A stretch of 64,000 nucleotides of DNA, from positions 103,665 to 167,664 of the IMG/VR virus record IMGVR_UViG_3300014208_000031. One strand, given 5' to 3'. Of this stretch, positions 3,368 to 18,740 are shown one piece after another. The stretch's first letter is position 1. Each line of letters starts with the position of its first letter. The notes beneath the pieces were generated by a model. That model was not told the origin of the DNA and searched no databases. It saw only the letters and a list, made by a program, of their open reading frames with translations. The translations under genes were made by a program, and so were the position numbers. The DNA comes from a virus.

Positions 3368-3561
3368 TAATTTTTGTTTCCATTTAAGTAAAACTCTTCT
3401 TCGTTTTTAGCGCAGCGTGGGCAAATCCAACCAGAATATTCGCAGGTAAATTCAGTATCGGGAGTAAAATCTAATCGGGCGCGGCCACCTTCTTCTAGTT
3501 CCTTGTGGGCTATAAATCTACCGCAAAAATCACATTTTATTAGATTATTATTAGTTTTCAC
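3367..3561 (-). CDS. small zinc-finger protein
   Basis: CDFC...CPRC pairs. Confidence 0.65.
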   Translation of the reverse strand: MKTNNNLIKCDFCGRFIAHKELEEGGRARLDFTPDTEFTCEYSGWICPRCAKNEEEFYLNGNKN

Positions 3562-6944: not shown

Positions 6945-7134
6945 TATTTAGCTCTTTCTTTAAAACTATAGCCAAAGTTCGTCTAGTTTGAGCCACGGCG
7001 TCCCAAGCATTTGACGTAGTAGAAACAGATACTCTTAAAGATTCTGGGACTATTTCCCATCCTTCAGTTACTAATCTATTAACACGCTTTTCAAAATTTT
7101 CGCAATCAATATCGGATATTAACCAAGTTTTCAT
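6937..7134 (-). CDS. hypothetical protein (DUF1737-like)
   Basis: FEKRVNRLVTEGWE pattern. Confidence 0.55.
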   Translation of the reverse strand: MKTWLISDIDCENFEKRVNRLVTEGWEIVPESLRVSVSTTSNAWDAVAQTRRTLAIVLKKELNNE

Positions 7135-7385
7135 AATATTTTCTTAAACTTTTCAATTTTATTAACTAACAACTCTACAATCTCACGAATTCCGGGGACT
7201 CCATAAGAGTCACCGTTCACTTCAAATTCAGTTAAAACTTTTGAAGCTAATCGGCGGATTTCTGTATCGTCCGACGCCCAATCGCGCAGACTTTTGCAAT
7301 AAAACTTTCTTAAATCATCAATAGGTATTTTTTCTACCGATTCTTCTAGACTAAATAGATTATTTTGTTTAAAAAAGTTATTCAT
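7131..7385 (-). CDS. hypothetical protein
   Basis: Tightly packed ORF. Confidence 0.65.
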   Translation of the reverse strand: MNNFFKQNNLFSLEESVEKIPIDDLRKFYCKSLRDWASDDTEIRRLASKVLTEFEVNGDSYGVPGIREIVELLVNKIEKFKKIL

Positions 7386-7660
7386 TTTAATTCTAATTCT
7401 AGCTGTTCTGGTATAACGTAAAATTCTCCGTCTACAACTTGAGGATTTGGTATTTTGTTTATTATACTTTCAATAATCTTCTTTTTTAAGGGTCGCGCAG
7501 TCCAATTATTAAAACAAAACTGAATAACTCCGGGTTTGAGACTGTTTAAAGTGTCCGGCGAAACATTTAATTCGGGGGAAATCTTGCGGACAAGCGAAAC
7601 CAAATAGATTTTATGTTTGTAACTTAGCTCTTGAATATTTATCATTCTACTACTTTCCAA
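7382..7660 (-). CDS. hypothetical protein
   Basis: Tightly packed ORF; start uncertain. Confidence 0.6.
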   Translation of the reverse strand: MESSRMINIQELSYKHKIYLVSLVRKISPELNVSPDTLNSLKPGVIQFCFNNWTARPLKKKIIESIINKIPNPQVVDGEFYVIPEQLELELK

Positions 7661-7944
7661 GTTTCATTCTTTATTAAACCTTCTTCTTTTTTATTTTGAT
7701 CAATAACCCATTGTCGGGCCGCGGCCAAACTATCAAAAACCATTCTATGTTTATTAAATCCATTAAGTGAATCCCCGGAATATTGATGCAGTGGACACCA
7801 AACTTCTTTTTCTATCTTTTTATTGTCTTTTACACATACCCAATCCCAAAAACCTAGAGTTTCATACTCAATTTCTTTTTTTAAATATTCTATACCGAAT
7901 TTAGTTCCGTTGGTTATAAATCTGATTGGATAGGATTTATTCAT
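7642..7944 (-). CDS. hypothetical protein
   Basis: Tightly packed ORF. Confidence 0.65.
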   Translation of the reverse strand: MNKSYPIRFITNGTKFGIEYLKKEIEYETLGFWDWVCVKDNKKIEKEVWCPLHQYSGDSLNGFNKHRMVFDSLAAARQWVIDQNKKEEGLIKNETWKVVE

Positions 7945-7950
7945 AATTAT

Positions 7951-8223
7951 TTAAGCTAAAACAGGCTCACCCAATTCTTTAATTTCAATACTATTGGCTA
8001 ATTGAGTTAATTTATCCGCCAAATTTAGCAAATCTTCTTTAGTTACAGTATTTAAAACAATTTTAGTAGAAAAAGTTTCGTCCGTTCGTTGCCGCGCGGA
8101 TATTTCCAGCGAGTTATAATTATAAGGAACAGTTTTCTTGCCAACCTTAAAAGAGCCTTGTGAGTTATTTAACGTTAAATCAATTATTGTGTCGTATTTG
8201 TTTATTGTGGTTTGTGTTTTCAT
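7951..8223 (-). CDS. hypothetical protein
   Basis: ORF downstream of a sigma70-like promoter. Confidence 0.65.
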   Translation of the reverse strand: MKTQTTINKYDTIIDLTLNNSQGSFKVGKKTVPYNYNSLEISARQRTDETFSTKIVLNTVTKEDLLNLADKLTQLANSIEIKELGEPVLA

Positions 8224-8241
8224 AGTTTTAATTTTCTCTTT

Positions 8242-8270
8242 ACTCTGCCATACTACTAGATGAAAGTCAA
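8242..8270 (-). promoter_or_regulatory. possible sigma70-like promoter
   Basis: TTGACT-N17-CAGAGT with TG upstream of the -10, in an intergenic gap. Confidence 0.35.
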
Positions 8271-8288
8271 GGGGTTTGTTGAGAGTGA

Positions 8289-9158
8289 TTAAACTTTTTT
8301 ATCTTTCTCCAAAAACGGAGAAACGGCATTGGGATATTTTTCAATAATCTCGGCGGCTTTTTTATTCATTTCTTTTACCCATCCTTGTTTTACTTTCGGC
8401 GGGCGATCATCTACCCAATTTTCCAATAACATAGAATCTCTTAATACTACTAAACATGCTATTGCTTTTGTTACGTGACTTAACCCTGAATCTTCATCAA
8501 TATCCTCTCCTTCAAACCAACTTGTTATATGTCTGAAAATTGCGTCATAGTACACACTGGCTCTTACTCCACATGATCTATAGTTATGACGACCATATTT
8601 TCGCGCTCCTTCTAATAGAGCTAAACCAACTTCGGCGATAACAGGCGCGGGGACTGTGGAAAATGGAACTTTTTTTACGCCCACGGCATCTTTTGGATTT
8701 GTTTGTTTAGTTTTGTCGTTTAAAATTTCAAACTTTTCAGTTTCGTCTTCGTATTTAGTAGTTTTAGTATCTAAAGTGTGAGAGATTGAATTTATTACTC
8801 CTGATATATTTTCTTTACAATTATTGCAATAAAAATAACCATCTCCAATAAAATCATCTATAAAAAATCCTTGTTTGCAAAGATGACAATAAATTTCTTT
8901 ATCATATTTTGGCGGCGGAGGCGGCGGTAAAGTATTTCTCGGCGGAACATAGCTTCCTTTTGAAAGACAATTTTCTAGTCCATTTGAATTATAACATTTA
9001 TAACAAATAAAAATTCCATCTTTAGTAATTCCTAATCCAGATTTATCCCCGCATTTACATGTTTGGTATGGTTCCATATTTTTCTTAATATTTTCTATTT
9101 GTAATATTCTTGTTAAAGTTTTACCAAGTTGCCGCGCAGCTAAGATTATTTTATTCAT
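8289..9158 (-). CDS. dATP/dGTP diphosphohydrolase (DUF5664-like) with N-terminal Zn-ribbon/Pro-rich extension
   Basis: TNPKDAVG..GARKYGRHNYR..YYDA..RH..WFEGEDIDEDSGLSH motif set; CxC/CxxC pairs and PPPPPP in the N-terminal half. Confidence 0.8.
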   Translation of the reverse strand: MNKIILAARQLGKTLTRILQIENIKKNMEPYQTCKCGDKSGLGITKDGIFICYKCYNSNGLENCLSKGSYVPPRNTLPPPPPPKYDKEIYCHLCKQGFFIDDFIGDGYFYCNNCKENISGVINSISHTLDTKTTKYEDETEKFEILNDKTKQTNPKDAVGVKKVPFSTVPAPVIAEVGLALLEGARKYGRHNYRSCGVRASVYYDAIFRHITSWFEGEDIDEDSGLSHVTKAIACLVVLRDSMLLENWVDDRPPKVKQGWVKEMNKKAAEIIEKYPNAVSPFLEKDKKV

Positions 9159-9682: not shown

Positions 9683-10375
9683 TTAAATACTTATACTTTT
9701 ATATTTTTCTAGAACTTCTTTGAATCCTAACCGATGACATTTTTCAGATAATGTTTCTTTCCATCCGTCATTTCCTTTTATAATATTTTTTACTAATCCG
9801 GGAACTTCTTTCCAAGATTCAAACCTTATGACATTATTGGAGTTTTTAATGTTTTTATTCCAAGGCGCATTTGCCAATAAAATTTGTTTGTCGGGATGTT
9901 TAACCGCTTCGATAGCCAAATGTGGTGAATCATCTATGTAAATAGAATAATCGAGATTTAATTTATCTGTAGCCGAAACTCTACCAAGACAATTTACTGA
10001 AGAAATTGGGCAATAAAATGGTTCATTTTTCCCTACTCCATAATTATATATTACCCAATCCCAAATTGATTTTTCGGCGGATTTGCTATTAGCCGTGACT
10101 ACATGAACTTGACAGTTCAAATTTCTAATTTTCCACAACGAAGTAAAAATATGTTCGTCGTAGGGTTTTATCATTAAACGCCCTTCTCTGTCAAAATAAT
10201 CTAAAATTCTATTAAATTGATCGTTATGGCCTAAGTCTTGCCAATAATCCCAAGTAATAATATGTTTATGGGTGTGATTTCCACCTGTTAAAATATTCAT
10301 TATATCACAAACCGTTGACATTGTTCGACCTAAAACGCCGTCAAAATCAAGTGAGATTTTTAATTGTTTATTCAT
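9683..10375 (-). CDS. HAD-family 5'(3')-deoxyribonucleotidase
   Basis: DFDGVL, VVTA, YIDDSP, PWN motifs. Confidence 0.8.
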   Translation of the reverse strand: MNKQLKISLDFDGVLGRTMSTVCDIMNILTGGNHTHKHIITWDYWQDLGHNDQFNRILDYFDREGRLMIKPYDEHIFTSLWKIRNLNCQVHVVTANSKSAEKSIWDWVIYNYGVGKNEPFYCPISSVNCLGRVSATDKLNLDYSIYIDDSPHLAIEAVKHPDKQILLANAPWNKNIKNSNNVIRFESWKEVPGLVKNIIKGNDGWKETLSEKCHRLGFKEVLEKYKSISI

Positions 10376-11625: not shown

Positions 11626-12087
11626 TTACTTTAAAGGGTCTATTCCGTTATCTTTTAATTTTTTATATTCTTTTAGTTTTTTAAACGCTACTTTATCCGC
11701 CCATTGTTCGCAAATTTTTAAATTATGATATAATTGCTGCCTTTTAATTGGGTCATTATATTGCTGGATATGGGCAAGTTCATGCCGAGTTGTAAAAACT
11801 GCCATACTCCAGAAGTCGCTAAAGGAATATTCACCGTGGTATCCCGTCCTAAGTTTTTTATCAGAACGAAGAGAAAATTCCAATGGATAGTGTTTTTTAT
11901 TATAATCAAACCTTAGAATAACGTAAGGAATTGCGTAGTTACCATAATGAAAATCGCAACTCCAGAAAGTTTTACAATTTTTAACTATTATATCTGTATT
12001 ATCTAAATTAAGGCTTTTTGGACGGCAAAATTCTATAAGTTTTTCTAGCTTTTTGGTGGGAATTCGTGATTTATTGATTAAGGCCAT
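11626..12087 (-). CDS. putative zincin-like metallopeptidase
   Basis: RHELAH (HExxH) with downstream E..AD. Confidence 0.55.
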   Translation of the reverse strand: MALINKSRIPTKKLEKLIEFCRPKSLNLDNTDIIVKNCKTFWSCDFHYGNYAIPYVILRFDYNKKHYPLEFSLRSDKKLRTGYHGEYSFSDFWSMAVFTTRHELAHIQQYNDPIKRQQLYHNLKICEQWADKVAFKKLKEYKKLKDNGIDPLK

Positions 12088-12181
12088 GAAATTGAGGTTT
12101 AAAAGATTTAAGGTGTTGAAGTCTCTAAAACTTATATCCTTTTGGATTGACCACTGAAAAAACTTTTAAATTGAGCCGCGT

Positions 12182-12214
12182 AAAAAAATAAAAGCCGGGT
12201 TAATTACTCCCGGC
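12182..12214 (-). terminator. rho-independent terminator
   Basis: GCCGGG-N9-CCCGGC followed by TTTTATTTTTTT on the minus strand. Confidence 0.75.
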
Positions 12215-12440
12215 CTTTAACATAAAACAGGTTGATTTCTCAACTAATATGAGTCCCCTTGGATTAGCTCAAATTGGCTAGTCTCAGGCCAAGACACACC
12301 TACTCATAACTCTCTTGGTCATGTACGTCTATCCGTACTGCTGTTTTATTTTTGCGCAAATCTAACTAATTAAGGATAAAAATCCTGCAACTGTTATAAA
12401 TTTTGATTTATAAAACATTATTTTATTTAATCTTGCATAT
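12182..12440 (-). ncRNA. candidate structured non-coding RNA of unknown family
   Basis: Gap with no ORF above 20 aa; both phage promoter-like motifs upstream; nested perfect stems (9-bp closing helix 12341-12349/12222-12230); terminator downstream. Confidence 0.55.
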
Positions 12441-12485
12441 TTAATTTACACGTTATCTACAAAATCTATATCCTTTTCCAAAAAA

Positions 12486-12737
12486 TTAAAGACGATATTC
12501 TGGTTTTTTAGGAGTATTTTCTTCTTGTCCGGGCGGCTGCGGAACTCCAAATCTAAACATTTGTTGAAATTGCTGTTGAAGTAACTGCTCTTGAGAAACT
12601 TCCTGCTGAATTATCTCAGGTTGATTGGAAGATTTGATAAATTGAATTGTGATATTTTCAATTGACCAAAACAATGCAACAAGTATTATTGTTAAACTAA
12701 TATAAAAAGCTGATTTATTTATTGATTGTTCAGTCAT
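12486..12737 (-). CDS. single-TM membrane protein with Gln-rich tail
   Basis: AFYISLTIILVALFW helix; ATG 12737 preferred. Confidence 0.65.
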   Translation of the reverse strand: MTEQSINKSAFYISLTIILVALFWSIENITIQFIKSSNQPEIIQQEVSQEQLLQQQFQQMFRFGVPQPPGQEENTPKKPEYRL

Positions 12738-12738
12738 A

Positions 12739-13347
12739 TTATTTTGTTTTCTCTGGTTCTTTAGGTTGAATTTCACCCGGCGTTAAATTATAAAACATAT
12801 ATTCTTGTTCTAGACTTTCTGAGCCGCCGCCCTTTTGACCACTTTCTTTGTCTCCCGGCTGGCCTTTTCCTTTGCCTTTGCCTTTTCCGCCCGATTTACC
12901 ATTTTTAGTTAATTTTCCAGTAACTTTTTGACCTTTTTGTAATTTTTCCATTACTTTTTGAAGTTGCTCATGTAAATTTCTAGAATAAGGTAATCTAAAC
13001 ATTCTAGGTTCGTTTTTGTCGCTTTCGTATTTTAACATTTTAAAAAATTGATTGTCGTAATTACTTTTTACACTATCTAATGTAAGATAAATTGCGCCTT
13101 TTTGACCTAAATTTTTATTTGGTTCTTTGATATTAGCGGCGACAATCGTTACAACTTCTGGCATACCACTATCGTCCGCCGCCCAGCCGAGGAAACTGTC
13201 TAGGCCGGAAAATACTCCAACCGTGAACAAGCAAAAGAGTGAAGTCATTAAAATCTTAAAAATCGCGTGGACTTTTGACTCAACTAATAACCAAAAAATT
13301 ATTCCGCCGAGAAAAAGAAGGCTGAAATAGATTGAAAAAGGTATCAT
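12739..13347 (-). CDS. two-TM membrane protein with Gly/Lys-rich tail (third gene of the MotA/ExbD-like module)
   Basis: Two N-terminal hydrophobic helices, PRMFRLPYSRNLHE, GGKGKGKGKG tail. Confidence 0.7.
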   Translation of the reverse strand: MIPFSIYFSLLFLGGIIFWLLVESKVHAIFKILMTSLFCLFTVGVFSGLDSFLGWAADDSGMPEVVTIVAANIKEPNKNLGQKGAIYLTLDSVKSNYDNQFFKMLKYESDKNEPRMFRLPYSRNLHEQLQKVMEKLQKGQKVTGKLTKNGKSGGKGKGKGKGQPGDKESGQKGGGSESLEQEYMFYNLTPGEIQPKEPEKTK

Positions 13348-14693: not shown

Positions 14694-15695
14694 TTAAGTA
14701 TTCTTGCTTTTTCTTGTTTCTAGTGGTAATCCCAGTCTTATTTTAATTTTTTTGGTTAAATAAGAATTAAGATTGACGATTCGCGCAGATTCTTTAAAAG
14801 ACTTTCCAGAGTCCAAAAGTTCTTTTACTTTTTCAAATTTCATTTCTGCTTTTTCATAATATGTTATATGGTTAACATTAATGTTGTCCCATTTCCTCTT
14901 CATAATAGGAAGATTGAGTTTTATCGCACATTTCTTTAGCTCCCTAAGAATCGGGAACTTATGCATAATCAAAATTATACAATTGTCTTTTCGATTGGGT
15001 GGAGAAACGCGAACAGTTAAATTAAATATTGATTCTATCTTTTCTTTTAGAGCTGCAAAAAAATCGCCCCAATTTTTATGACAACAAACCTGTATTACTA
15101 CAGTGTTATTTTTTTTCTTATGAATGCATCCGTCGCCATCTATCAAACCAATTAAAAAAGATAAAAATAAGTCATTGGGTAAACTTTTATAAAACTGGAA
15201 GTTTTGTGGTGGATATAGTGTTTTATTCTGCTGTAAGTCAAATTTATCCTGAATTTTAAAATAGTTTTTATTATCGTTTCCCTGTAATGAAGACTGCACC
15301 GAATATTTTATTTCATTTTTATATTCATGCGAATGTTTGTGTGAATAAAAATTAAACTTAACATTTTCAAAAGCATTCTTTAACCATTCGGTATCTTTTT
15401 CATTTACCGAAATACAAATTCCGCCAGACTTAGTAAAACATCCATCAGCCGCGATAAAACCCATTTGATAATAAGCTAACGGGGTTTCTAGTAAAAGGTT
15501 ACTTAATTCACATGTTCTATTATATGCTTCGGTGATTTCGGGATTCTTTTTTAAGCCTAAACGACGTGCTCTTTTATGAATTGCAACTACAGATCGGTCG
15601 GGGAATAATTTAGTTAATTCTTGATGTGTGGCATCAAAATAGAATTTTCTTAATGTGTTGTCTTCTTCTGTTGTATAGTCTGGATTTTTTGCCAT
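14694..15695 (-). CDS. LAGLIDADG homing endonuclease with N-terminal HTH
   Basis: MGFIAADGC and LIGLIDGDGC motifs. Confidence 0.85.
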   Translation of the reverse strand: MAKNPDYTTEEDNTLRKFYFDATHQELTKLFPDRSVVAIHKRARRLGLKKNPEITEAYNRTCELSNLLLETPLAYYQMGFIAADGCFTKSGGICISVNEKDTEWLKNAFENVKFNFYSHKHSHEYKNEIKYSVQSSLQGNDNKNYFKIQDKFDLQQNKTLYPPQNFQFYKSLPNDLFLSFLIGLIDGDGCIHKKKNNTVVIQVCCHKNWGDFFAALKEKIESIFNLTVRVSPPNRKDNCIILIMHKFPILRELKKCAIKLNLPIMKRKWDNINVNHITYYEKAEMKFEKVKELLDSGKSFKESARIVNLNSYLTKKIKIRLGLPLETRKSKNT

Positions 15696-15723
15696 TTCGT
15701 TTTAAAACTTAAACCGTCTAAAC

Positions 15724-15751
15724 ACTATATCCTTTTGTTTTGGAAAGTCAA
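15724..15751 (-). promoter_or_regulatory. promoter: TTGACT-N16-TATAGT overlapping AAAGGATATA motif
   Basis: Intergenic, 30 nt upstream of the endonuclease gene. Confidence 0.5.
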
Positions 15752-15819
15752 GGGTTTTGGGAAATTAGTTTAATGGCGGGTAAAACGCTCGGATTCATGG
15801 AAAAGTGTAAATAAAATAC

Positions 15820-16143
15820 GTGAACTTTATTGTCCGCGCAGAAATTTTAAATCCTCCTACACGACTTTTGTGTTTTAGAGATTTATGCTTCTGGCTGCAT
15901 TATGATTTTAGGCAATTTGAAAATATTTTAATTGAAGTGGCGCGACCAGAAATAGATATTTATTATAAATATTTAAAGAATTCACCCGGTTCGATGGATT
16001 TTGTTGCCGATTTTATCGAAGAAGATTATAAAGAAAAGGGTTTAAGGTTGGCGGACGAACCAGTAATTAGTCCTACTATTCAGGCGGTTTACATTAACGA
16101 AAAAAATGTTTATTCAATTTTAAGGGCTGTAGGATACAACTAA
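15820..16143 (+). CDS. hypothetical protein (only plus-strand gene in the minus block)
   Basis: Occupies an otherwise empty gap; AAAAGTGTAAA 8 nt before GTG; converges on the exonuclease gene. Confidence 0.65.
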   Translation: MNFIVRAEILNPPTRLLCFRDLCFWLHYDFRQFENILIEVARPEIDIYYKYLKNSPGSMDFVADFIEEDYKEKGLRLADEPVISPTIQAVYINEKNVYSILRAVGYN

Positions 16144-16868
16144 AAAGCGTCCGCCGAATAGTGTTCCAGCATCGTCATAATATCTTTTTTCATATAATCG
16201 ACTTTGATAATTTCTATTTTCTTGTCCGCCGGATTCACCCAAAAGATATTTAGATTTTTATTAACGTTATAGCCCTGTAAAGACAAAAGATAGGAATATA
16301 AGCTTAACTGAAGAGAGTATCTTGTGATCGCATCGTTTTTCAGATGATTTAACGGATATAAAAGTTTATTGTAGGCTTTTTTTGTCAAAGACTCATTTGT
16401 TTTGAGGTCGCAAATTCTTATTTCATTTTTATCTTTATTATACTCCACAAAATCACTCAAACCAGACACGAGTAAATCTTTAGAATAGACAAGAACTTCC
16501 GAAAAAACCGGATATTCAAATGTTGGATAAATATCATTTTTGAAATTTTCTACTATTTCTTTATTCGCGGATTTCCTTATTTTTTTAGTGTTAATAAAAT
16601 GTTCTATTTCTGCGTGTACTGCCGAGCCGTATAGACAACTTAGATCGCGCTTATCGTTCCAGCGCTTTCTTAAAACTTCTTTATCTATTCCTTCACGTTT
16701 TGCACACATCGTAAGAATAATCCCAGATTCGTCGAAGGGAATTTCATATAAATGTATAAGTTGCGAGACTGAGATATATTTATTATTTTCTTTGTCTATG
16801 TAGCTGTGATCGTCCGCGTGAAACGTGACAAAATCTTGCTCAAATGGATTTTTAGGTTTTCTTCCCAT
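16140..16868 (-). CDS. PD-(D/E)xK exonuclease (Cas4/RecB-like)
   Basis: GSAVH..E, SE..VSGLSD, ICDLKT, YSLQLSLY. Confidence 0.8.
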   Translation of the reverse strand: MGRKPKNPFEQDFVTFHADDHSYIDKENNKYISVSQLIHLYEIPFDESGIILTMCAKREGIDKEVLRKRWNDKRDLSCLYGSAVHAEIEHFINTKKIRKSANKEIVENFKNDIYPTFEYPVFSEVLVYSKDLLVSGLSDFVEYNKDKNEIRICDLKTNESLTKKAYNKLLYPLNHLKNDAITRYSLQLSLYSYLLSLQGYNVNKNLNIFWVNPADKKIEIIKVDYMKKDIMTMLEHYSADAF

Positions 16869-18140: not shown

Positions 18141-18734
18141 TTATTGGTTGGATTCGTAGAATGCGCGACAAAACCCCATCGGGGTAATCGAACGAAGCAT
18201 TTTGGTCTTCTCTGACTTCCCGCCGAGTCTTTGCAAATGTGAGCCTTGAGGACAGCTACGAATGGGTTCAACCATATTTGTTGGTTCTGGAAAATTAAAT
18301 CGGCCCCAAAGTCCAGTTTTTTTACTATAAAAATCTCCGTAAAAATAAGGCTGGAAATATCTCGGCCCCAACTCTTTCATTTCTGGAATTAATCTATTTA
18401 TCCGCCCGACGGGATTTTCAATAGCATAAAATTTAGGGTTTAGTTTTTTAATTATTTCTAAAGTTCTTTTAATTAATTTAATACTATATTCTGTTCTGCC
18501 GTCCAAATCCTTGTCTTTGAACCATCGCGCGCCGCTAACGGCAAAATTATCGCAAGGCGGCGCGGCCAATATTCCATAAACATCATCAGGGTCTAAATCA
18601 TTTAACCAAGAATCATCAAAAACATCATGACCATATTTTATATTAATTTGAATACACGGATAACCGTTTTGACGATATGGTAATACCCAATTTCCGCTGT
18701 AATCAAACAGCGATAAAATTACTTTATTTAACAC
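18141..18734 (-). CDS. short C5-cytosine DNA methyltransferase-like protein
   Basis: LSLFD.SG, AAPPC, ENPV, KKT.LWG, RSITP.GF. Confidence 0.8.
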   Translation of the reverse strand: MLNKVILSLFDYSGNWVLPYRQNGYPCIQINIKYGHDVFDDSWLNDLDPDDVYGILAAPPCDNFAVSGARWFKDKDLDGRTEYSIKLIKRTLEIIKKLNPKFYAIENPVGRINRLIPEMKELGPRYFQPYFYGDFYSKKTGLWGRFNFPEPTNMVEPIRSCPQGSHLQRLGGKSEKTKMLRSITPMGFCRAFYESNQ

Positions 18735-18740
18735 GGGAAT

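Follow-up and report, generated by a model that had tools for sequence, protein, structure and literature searches.

Most of the known phage RNAs with complex folds, such as GOLLD, ROOL and the orphan motifs that end in a terminator, are not known to have a function. The species 1 and 2 RNAs of phage T4 (rnaC/rnaD) are stable small RNAs that are encoded with phage tRNA genes. Terminating riboswitches, for example SAM-I with its four-way junction and pseudoknot, have a P1-closed junction, an adjacent terminator and a gene on the same strand, an arrangement that is also found at the locus described here. A group of orphan RNAs with complex folds, each ended by a Rho-independent terminator, was reported with function unknown, and the authors considered a riboswitch or self-cleaving ribozyme role improbable for them (Weinberg 2017, PMC5737381). 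Candidate structured RNAs have also been predicted in IMG/VR using a method that requires several homologues (Fremin, Bhatt, Kyrpides 2023, PMC10690425).

The phage RNA reported here resembles the orphan group of Weinberg 2017 in its multi-helix fold, conserved junctions, covarying stems and the terminator that directly follows them. The four members of that group show no homology to the phage RNA in Rfam 15, and together they form a descriptive group rather than a family. Whereas those motifs are bacterial and tied to particular protein domains, the phage RNA has no consistent protein neighbor in the two cases found. With the T4 species 1 and 2 RNAs it shares the character of a small non-coding RNA and a place in a tRNA-gene slot (seen in a syntenic relative, contig L031), a likeness by context only. 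The topology is cloverleaf-like, with a closing stem, a 2-nt linker and three arms, the last of which abuts the closing stem; in contrast to tRNA-associated RNAs it has its own terminator, so that processing from a tRNA precursor is not required. The IMG/VR candidates of Fremin, Bhatt and Kyrpides (2023) are the same kind of object in the same kind of data, and pattern scans of IMG/VR matched only the present record.

Genomic setting of the RNA locus

We analyzed a 64,000-nt stretch of DNA (hereafter, the window) that spans positions 103665-167664 in the IMG/VR record of an uncultivated phage; the record is 167.7 kb long and rated 100% complete. The genome has a G+C content of 33% and includes T4-like replication genes, encoding a UvsX-like recombinase, a DnaB-like helicase, a primase, and gp46/47-like and PD-(D/E)XK exonucleases. 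A search for a close cultured relative of the phage found none. All genes around the RNA locus are on the minus strand, and no ORF of at least 20 aa lies wholly inside the gap that holds the RNA, on either strand (Table 1).

Gene starts of this phage carry no Shine-Dalgarno signal and have A/T-rich contexts. Two motifs recur across the genome. The first, AAAGGATATA, has 25 copies that are strand-matched to genes, mostly with an ATG 18 nt after the start of the motif. The second, GTGTAAA, has 49 copies that are concentrated in the structural-gene half of the genome, and 30 of the 49 are intergenic, although intergenic sequence makes up 13% of the genome. Leaderless or short-leader mRNAs, with a promoter role for the recurrent motifs, would be a reasonable reading.

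Table 1. Features of the RNA locus and of its immediate neighbors, in window coordinates.
Feature	Position	Strand	Description
Downstream gene, 153 aa	11626-12087	-	Member of a small protein family in which HExxH...E...AD is invariant; putative metallohydrolase
Gap holding the RNA	12088-12485 (398 nt)	-	Between the 96-aa ORF and the 153-aa ORF
Second full copy of AAAGGATATA	12133-12142	-	Between terminator and next gene (ATG at 12087)
Intrinsic terminator	12218-12182	-	AAAGGCCGGG, 9-nt loop, CCCGGCUUUU, then A + U7; stem 10-11 bp (fold); 3-5 nt past P1
Conserved RNA core, 128 nt	12349-12222	-	P1, P2, the arm P3-P4-P5 and P6 (GAAA loop) meet in a four-way junction; from fold, homologue and compensatory pairs
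P1, 9 bp	12349-12341 with 12230-12222	-	AUAAAACAG/CUGUUUUAU; direct reading
P2	12338-12334 with 12327-12323	-	GUACG/CGUAC, 6-nt loop; 2-nt linker from P1
Junction J2/3, 14 nt	12309-12322	-	AUGACCAAGAGAGU; identical in both phages; contains CCAAGA
Second CCAAGA, in junction	12318-12313	-	Can pair with UCUUGG at 12294-12289 (pseudoknot or alternative hairpin)
Long arm P3-P4-P5	12248-12308	-	Asymmetric internal loops AGGUGUG/GG (P3/P4) and CCUGAGAC/AU (P4/P5)
P3, 7 bp	12308-12302 with 12254-12248	-	UAUGAGU/ACUCAUA; direct reading
P4	12294-12289 with 12262-12257	-	UCUUGG/CCAAGG; direct reading
P5, 4 bp	12280-12277 with 12268-12265	-	UAGC/GCUA; variable end loop
P6	12244-12231	-	GUUGA-GAAA-UCAAC; GNRA loop; 3-nt linker before; abuts 3' strand of P1
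12-codon frame AUG...UGA	12322-12284	-	MTKRVMSRCVLA; inside the core
Proximal promoter-like box	12351-12364	-	TAGATTTG then CGCAAAAA; directly before P1; includes GCAAAAA
AU-rich leader	12365-12466	-	45% identity to the spacer of the second phage (L012)
18-aa ORF in leader	12418-12362	-	Direct reading; not conserved
GTGTAAA copy	12445-12451	-	Second candidate promoter class; preceded by C, not the usual A
Distal copy of AAAGGATATA	12467-12476	-	Recurrent motif; candidate phage promoter
96-aa ORF, upstream neighbor	12486-12776	-	ORF list

Fold of the core and its energy

The earlier note had described a structured domain of ~128 nt in this gap, and direct reading of the sequence finds each of its helices on the minus strand, in the place it had been given. 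Folding energy by itself is only suggestive. The whole 295-nt stretch has a z-score of -4.24, with none of 200 shuffles as good, and the core alone has a z-score of -3.15, with 1 of 200 shuffles as good. In a genome-wide control, the gap that holds the RNA ranks 5th by folding energy among the 34 same-strand gaps of the phage, and energy alone would thus not settle whether the RNA is real. Pair probabilities exceed 0.85 for P1, P2 and P6. For the P3 and P4 of the earlier note they are below 0.06, and these two helices lie 5.4 kcal/mol above the minimum-energy fold.

A homologue in a second phage

An exhaustive HMMER search with the 153-aa protein encoded downstream led, through its closest relative, to a 3.6-kb contig (L012) of a second, diverged phage. 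The covariance model R1, built from the window sequence alone, matched this contig at L012:2504-2634 on the gene strand, with 99 bits and E = 2.7e-23; R2 is the model built from both sequences. This homologue is the decisive evidence that the structured RNA is real.

In the model-guided alignment of the two copies, seven pairs are altered on both sides yet still paired, and none is altered on one side only. Three of these compensatory pairs are in P3, and P1, P2, P5 and P6 have one each. P4 is without covariation, as it is invariant save for its closing G-C, which is G.A in L012. This is a single pairwise comparison of two distinct sequences, in an alignment fitted to the model; given that the helices are ungapped and bracketed by invariant blocks, the covariation result does not depend on the choice of alignment. 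Only two cells of the alignment are unpaired, both at helix ends. Overall, 97% of the cells are paired, versus 31-44% after the partners have been shifted by 1-3 columns, which also leaves no compensatory pair. The observed pairing values were reached by only 4 of 500 shuffles. Differences between the phages occur in 17 of 72 paired columns and in 8 of 50 unpaired aligned columns, and it is a signature of structural selection that paired columns differ more than unpaired ones.

Both phages have the same sequence at the junction AUGACCAAGAGAGU, in the loop AGGUGUG and in UCUUGGCCUGAG. The end loops of L012 are changed: that of P2 is 3 nt longer, that of P5 is GUAA, and that of P6 is longer with GUAA retained. 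Identity between the two phages is 76% in the core, 60% in the gene for the 153-aa protein, 65% in the exonuclease gene and 45% in the leader, which is essentially unalignable; the neighboring proteins are 52-59% identical. The minimum-energy version of the central arm was rejected because L012 has uncompensated changes that disrupt the GUCUU/GAGAC helix of that version, and this supports the P3-P5 arm. The domain of ~128 nt, including its thermodynamically disfavored central arm, is thus borne out by compensatory changes in a second phage, and the search for homologues and covariation that the earlier note had suggested yielded a copy with seven compensatory pairs spread over five of the six helices (P4 has none).

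We also considered that the gap might have no function, being AT-rich spacer that folds by chance next to the ordinary terminator of the upstream operon. Such a spacer would fit with the z-scores of about -3 found in several other gaps of the genome, and with the pattern scans of IMG/VR, JGI metagenome and GTDB contigs, in which no homologue was found. However, it is very unlikely given seven compensatory pairs with no one-sided change, and given 76% identity in the core amid an unalignable leader. The chance of at least seven compensated pairs among 36 is of the order of 1e-6, a rough estimate that takes ~0.017 per pair. We hold it to be highly probable that this is a real, selected, structured RNA.

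Comparison with known RNA families

The earlier note had recognized no tRNA, tmRNA, SRP, 6S, riboswitch or ribozyme core in the sequence, and a covariance-model check against Rfam 15, together with ARAGORN, agrees: there was no match to tRNA, tmRNA or any other family. None of the 4227 models of Rfam 15 matched the 64-kb window at the gathering threshold. At E <= 10, positions 12050-12600 gave five chance-level rows, mostly on the terminator, the best with 19.7 bits versus a threshold of 55. The L012 copy is likewise without a match in Rfam 15. These negative results cover riboswitches, ribozymes, tRNA, tmRNA, 6S, Y-like RNAs and the phage-associated large RNAs.

Several specific identities were rejected. 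ARAGORN found no tRNA or tmRNA in the window, nor in the gap at a relaxed score, and RF00005 was absent at E <= 10. The D-loop, T-loop and anticodon features are missing as well; the arm in the T-arm position (P6) ends in a GAAA tetraloop. Models of hammerhead, hairpin, twister, twister-sister, pistol, hatchet and HDV-like ribozymes had no match at E <= 10 in either copy. A group I intron was dismissed because no model matched and because the gap contains promoter-like motifs as well as a terminator. Type III toxin-antitoxin RNAs (ToxI-like) are recognized by tandem direct antitoxin repeats, then a terminator and an endoribonuclease toxin gene; here the RNA is a single copy in which no internal repeats were seen, and the downstream protein is of the HExxH type and differs in L012.

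Further relatives were sought by several routes. The phage's own genome has no second copy of the RNA, and blastn of the gap against GenBank phages returned no match. Exact-pattern scans with the invariant blocks, which detect near-identical blocks only, returned nothing or chance matches from IMG/VR, JGI metagenome and GTDB contigs, and R1 or R2 was negative on all that were checked. A literature search with the invariant strings retrieved unrelated primers only. Neither the 153-aa nor the 202-aa flanking protein has relatives in IMG/VR or GenBank phages, and a word-based search with the 153-aa protein matched only itself. Two contigs with an identical protein (L002 and L003) are 100% identical to the locus over 4.9-6.5 kb and so offer no variation. 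The loci reached via the gp47-like exonuclease (L004-L010, 35-51% identity) have no synteny and no match to the single-sequence covariance model. No relative in IMG/VR was found with the gp47-like exonuclease, nor with the 242-aa exonuclease as a single query. An alignment of PD-(D/E)XK exonucleases led to ten distant records in IMG/VR, including four complete giant phages, and no R2 match was found across these whole records. The best reading is that the RNA belongs to an uncatalogued family with two known members.

Terminator, candidate promoters and boundaries of the RNA

The strong terminator that had been noted after the core is supported by the fold, which gives an 11-bp stem, and the structure is kept in L012, where a terminator of different sequence occupies the same place at the same distance after the core (fold and alignment). 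It was absent from the output of our terminator scan because the scan had a loop limit of 8 nt, which the 9-nt loop of this hairpin exceeds.

At the other end, conservation starts about 8-25 nt upstream of P1, and it stops with the terminator. Directly before P1, both phages have a better conserved promoter-like box (TAGATTTG in the window, TACATTTTG in L012) followed by GCAAAAA; in L012 the box is followed by UAUGCAAAAA, the equivalent of CGCAAAAA. The sequence weakly suggests that this -10/-7-like box could start an RNA of ~170 nt a few nucleotides before P1. The suggestion is a weak one because TAnnTTTG shows no genome-wide enrichment upstream of genes, and a general Bacteroidota-type -7 promoter reading was rejected on the same observation.

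The earlier note had placed two promoters further upstream and had taken the RNA for an independent transcript. Both of its motifs are copies of the motifs that recur across the genome, which makes them candidate promoters. The second full AAAGGATATA copy, which separates the terminator from the next gene, favors a separate transcript, and the RNA may well be one. The AU-rich leader with its 18-aa ORF is present as had been described, but it is not conserved (45% identity to L012). To judge from this comparison, the leader, with its hairpins and ORF, probably lies outside the functional RNA and is spacer or decayed sequence.

A coding role would require that a small peptide be made from the 18-aa leader ORF or from the 12-codon frame in the core, either for its own sake or for attenuation. 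Both frames do exist, and the 12-codon frame stays open in L012, where a single residue differs (M to A). The region of the 18-aa ORF, however, is not conserved, and 11 codons of the 12-codon frame are identical at every base, with no synonymous drift, while the neighboring proteins have diverged to the extent given above. In the one codon that did change, all three bases are different, and every one of these differences is compensated in the partner strand of P3. The lack of synonymous drift and this compensated codon argue for selection on the RNA and not on a peptide. Moreover, the start context is G/C-rich, unlike the A/T-rich starts of the genome, and there is no run of regulatory codons as in a leader-peptide attenuator. 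We regard a coding role as extremely unlikely.

A shared strand with two possible partners

The UCUUGG strand can pair with CCAAGG, as in P4, or with the CCAAGA of the junction. The latter pairing was chosen by RNAalifold and by the minimum-energy fold of L012. The two arrangements are close in energy: P3 with P4 has -29.4 kcal/mol and the alternative pairing -29.9 kcal/mol in the window, and the corresponding values in L012 are -35.9 and -37.3 kcal/mol. All three strands (CCAAGA, UCUUGG and CCAAGG) are invariant, except that the closing G-C of P4 is lost in L012, and for this reason covariation does not choose between the two pairings. P3 itself is established by its three compensatory pairs. 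If the CCAAGA/UCUUGG pairing formed alongside P3, the result would be an H-type pseudoknot; with its loops 4, 7 and 34 nt long, it is feasible in topology. The alternative pairing stays inside the core and makes no contact with the terminator. In proposing a pseudoknot or conformational switch, the earlier note had relied on a second CCAAGA upstream; that strand is indeed complementary, and the near-equal energies in both phages make the pseudoknot or switch a candidate. On these folds, a pseudoknot or conformational switch at CCAAGA/UCUUGG/CCAAGG would be a testable hypothesis.

A variable slot in related phages

The 153-aa protein has about 18-19 relatives with 26-52% identity (HMMER) and gives weak metallopeptidase hits in Pfam. 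Its predicted model has a pLDDT of 93.8, and a fold search with this model found no PDB match at E <= 0.001, with a weak likeness to small metallohydrolases. Its gene is followed by a nucleotide-metabolism cluster, and the downstream genes include those for a phosphatase, an NT5C nucleotidase and a dGTP diphosphohydrolase.

The window, L012 and L031 share a gene order in which an exonuclease gene is followed by a small opposite-strand gene, variable cargo, the slot of the RNA and the gene for the HExxH protein. In the window the cargo is a homing-endonuclease gene with a five-gene membrane-protein operon, and in L012 it is an HSP20-like gene. The slot of L031 contains a bona fide tRNA-Met, scored at 69 bits, along with a second element that is tRNA-like. 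L012 also has an 86-nt tRNA-Met-like element ~100 nt upstream of its RNA, which was called by ARAGORN only and is negative in Rfam. In other relatives the slot is either empty or taken by a protein gene. The RNA is absent upstream of most members of the 153-aa family, and six other relatives of the gene lack it. The gene next to the RNA is the 153-aa HExxH gene in the window versus an unrelated 93-aa gene in L012.

Because the content varies among relatives, the slot is a variable one for small RNAs and accessory genes, and the RNA is not tied to the 153-aa gene. Since a related phage has tRNA genes in the slot, we liken the RNA to the stable small RNAs found alongside tRNA genes in phages, and by this analogy it may behave as they do.

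This setting also bears on a cis-acting role, in which the core would be a riboswitch-like or protein-responsive attenuator that sets the frequency of termination and so controls the HExxH gene and the nucleotide-metabolism cluster. The layout is the classic riboswitch one: a P1-closed multi-stem junction whose loops and junction are invariant and whose stems covary, with a terminator that starts 3-5 nt past P1. A same-strand gene comes next in both phages, and the ATG of L012 lies ~13 nt past the U-tract, which makes read-through into the next gene of L012, and hence a cis role there, plausible. In addition, the two near-isoenergetic conformations use the common strand UCUUGG, and the downstream genes include those for the phosphatase, the NT5C nucleotidase and the dGTP diphosphohydrolase.

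On the other hand, inspection and folds found no antiterminator pairing kept in both sequences; one candidate, UUGGCCU/AGGCCGG, is possible in the window and was rejected by inspection as it is lost in L012. The first downstream gene is not the same in the two phages, and in the window a full AAAGGATATA lies between the terminator and the gene. The RNA is missing from most relatives of the 153-aa gene, and thus has no consistent 5' UTR position. No riboswitch model matches even at E <= 10. In three respects (model match, conserved downstream gene and the promoter-like motif in between) the RNA departs from the terminating riboswitches, and we consider such an attenuator possible but unlikely.

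Probable mode of action

The explanation that we favor, at somewhat better than even, is that the locus is a gene for a stand-alone, trans-acting, small structured non-coding RNA of an uncatalogued family, which works via its folded shape. A stand-alone role in trans is favored as the gene downstream is not the same in the two phages, the terminator is followed by a promoter-like motif, no conserved antiterminator was found and a relative has tRNAs in the slot. The invariant junctions and loops, the covarying stems, the variable end loops and the GNRA loop retained on P6 point to a defined three-dimensional shape as the basis of its action. The RNA would be transcribed as its own short unit, of ~170 nt from the conserved box or ~275 nt from the distal AAAGGATATA. 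It would act in trans through this shape, binding a protein or a small ligand, and may use a pseudoknot or switch between the CCAAGA/UCUUGG and UCUUGG/CCAAGG pairings. It would work neither by antisense pairing nor as the leader of the next gene.

An action by antisense pairing would make the locus a base-pairing sRNA, with the invariant single strands AUGACCAAGAGAGU, AGGUGUG and CCUGAG as seeds against host or phage mRNAs. The stand-alone unit, the 3' terminator and the long invariant unpaired stretches are in keeping with such a role. When we compared the seeds with the start regions of the phage, which were the target set covered, they paired no better than shuffled seeds did, the best duplex being -10.7 kcal/mol versus a shuffle mean of -12.7 kcal/mol. 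Known seed-type sRNAs also need less than a six-helix junction, so that the junction seen here, which is under structural selection, exceeds their needs. On the phage targets and on the fold, we consider a base-pairing sRNA distinctly unlikely.

We also raise, as a speculative possibility that we think improbable, a new class of phage sensor or catalytic RNA. Its four-way-junction core, pseudoknotted or bistable at CCAAGA/UCUUGG/CCAAGG, would bind a metabolite, a signaling nucleotide or a host protein, and would thus either control read-through into the HExxH gene and the nucleotide-metabolism genes downstream or neutralize a host factor.

Significance

Phage genomes are a rich and thinly charted source of complex-fold RNAs. 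At ~130 nt, the RNA described here is small enough for probing, crystallography or cryo-EM, and its fold is pinned by compensatory changes. The invariant strand with two possible partners leads to a directly testable switch or pseudoknot hypothesis. Finally, the same slot can contain tRNA genes in one phage and a structured RNA unrelated to them in another, which is relevant to the ways in which phages gain and exchange small-RNA genes.

Candidate promoter motifs

The motif AAAGGATATA occurs in 25 copies across the whole genome of the record, on the same strand as the genes, and in most of them the distance from the start of the motif to an ATG or GTG is 18 nt. A Shine-Dalgarno signal is otherwise absent at this phage's gene starts. 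Together, the spacing and this absence suggest that AAAGGATATA is a phage promoter that would yield mRNAs with no leader or a very short one. On L012, a 3.6-kb contig of a second phage that encodes a homologous RNA, the related AAAGTATTTAGATTTT lies 17 nt upstream of the GTG start of a 154-aa gene.

The second motif, (A)GTGTAAA, has 49 copies across the whole genome, 30 of which are intergenic, whereas intergenic sequence makes up 13% of the genome. An A-rich run precedes most copies, and most sit in the structural-gene half; judged from this placement, the motif may represent a second, perhaps late, class of phage promoter. In the related, syntenic phage contig L031, AGTGTAAT is found a few nucleotides upstream of a tRNA-Met gene.

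Coordinates of motifs, genes and tRNA-like elements
Feature	Location	Strand	Remark
AAAGGATATA, examples	window 5098, 12142, 12476, 15735, 21617, 24669, 30397, 31654, 36427, 44813, 50076, 55528	minus
(A)GTGTAAA, examples	window 1766, 6097, 12451, 15805(+), 20624, 32992, 53059, 55577, 60908
153-aa protein gene	window 11626-12087	minus
107-aa ORF	window 15820-16143	plus	lone plus-strand ORF
107-aa ORF counterpart	L012:1392-1718
tRNA-Met(CAU)-like element, 86 nt	L012:2316-2401		called by ARAGORN
Elements in the RNA slot of L031	L031:7563-7639 and L031:7825-7897
Large terminase gene	genome 30032-33211	plus	outside the window
TnpB-like genes	L028:1473-2768 and L028:12772-13998

tRNA and tRNA-like elements

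Two elements occupy the syntenic slot of L031 that matches the position of the RNA. One is a tRNA-Met(CAU) whose acceptor stem has a C-A mismatch at its top; the other, tRNA-like, has an anticodon loop of 8 nt and is reported by ARAGORN as tRNA-?(ataa) at a relaxed score only. In the L012 element the variable arm is long and the anticodon stem has three G-C pairs at its base. The Rfam tRNA model made no call on this element; its 5′ end, GCAGGATATA, resembles the promoter-like motif. The sole ARAGORN tRNA in the whole genome of the record is a tRNA-Leu(CAA) at 3397-3480.

Neighboring and other genes

In the small family that includes the 153-aa protein (19 representatives, from phage contigs), an HExxH...E...AD motif is invariant. 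The AlphaFold model of the 153-aa protein (pLDDT 93.8) had no PDB match at E ≤ 0.001, and in the PDB fold search it weakly resembled (TM about 0.4) YbeY, SprT-like and minigluzincin metallohydrolases. The gene heads a cluster that also encodes a phosphatase, an NT5C nucleotidase and a dGTP diphosphohydrolase.

The 107-aa ORF shares 57% identity with its L012 counterpart, which is also on the opposite strand and adjoins an exonuclease gene. Given this conservation in sequence and orientation, we consider it a real gene. The large terminase is 1059 aa long. In a tblastn comparison with cultured phages, it mostly matched helicase and gyrase genes that contain inteins, a pattern suggestive of an inserted intein. 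On L028, another related phage contig, the replication region carries two TnpB-like (OrfB_IS605/Cas12f-like) genes.

Other strongly folding gaps

Comparing the best 130-nt window per gap, with gaps taken from a simple ORF map (ATG-only starts, at least 70 aa), four gaps fold at least as well as that containing the RNA: 15613-16709, 7077-9101 and 9705-10026 of the genome, all outside the window, and window 18381-18740 (z = -5.0, -3.9, -3.8 and -3.4, respectively). The last is covered by a GTG-start ORF (18141-18734). These gaps may harbor further RNA genes or small ORFs.
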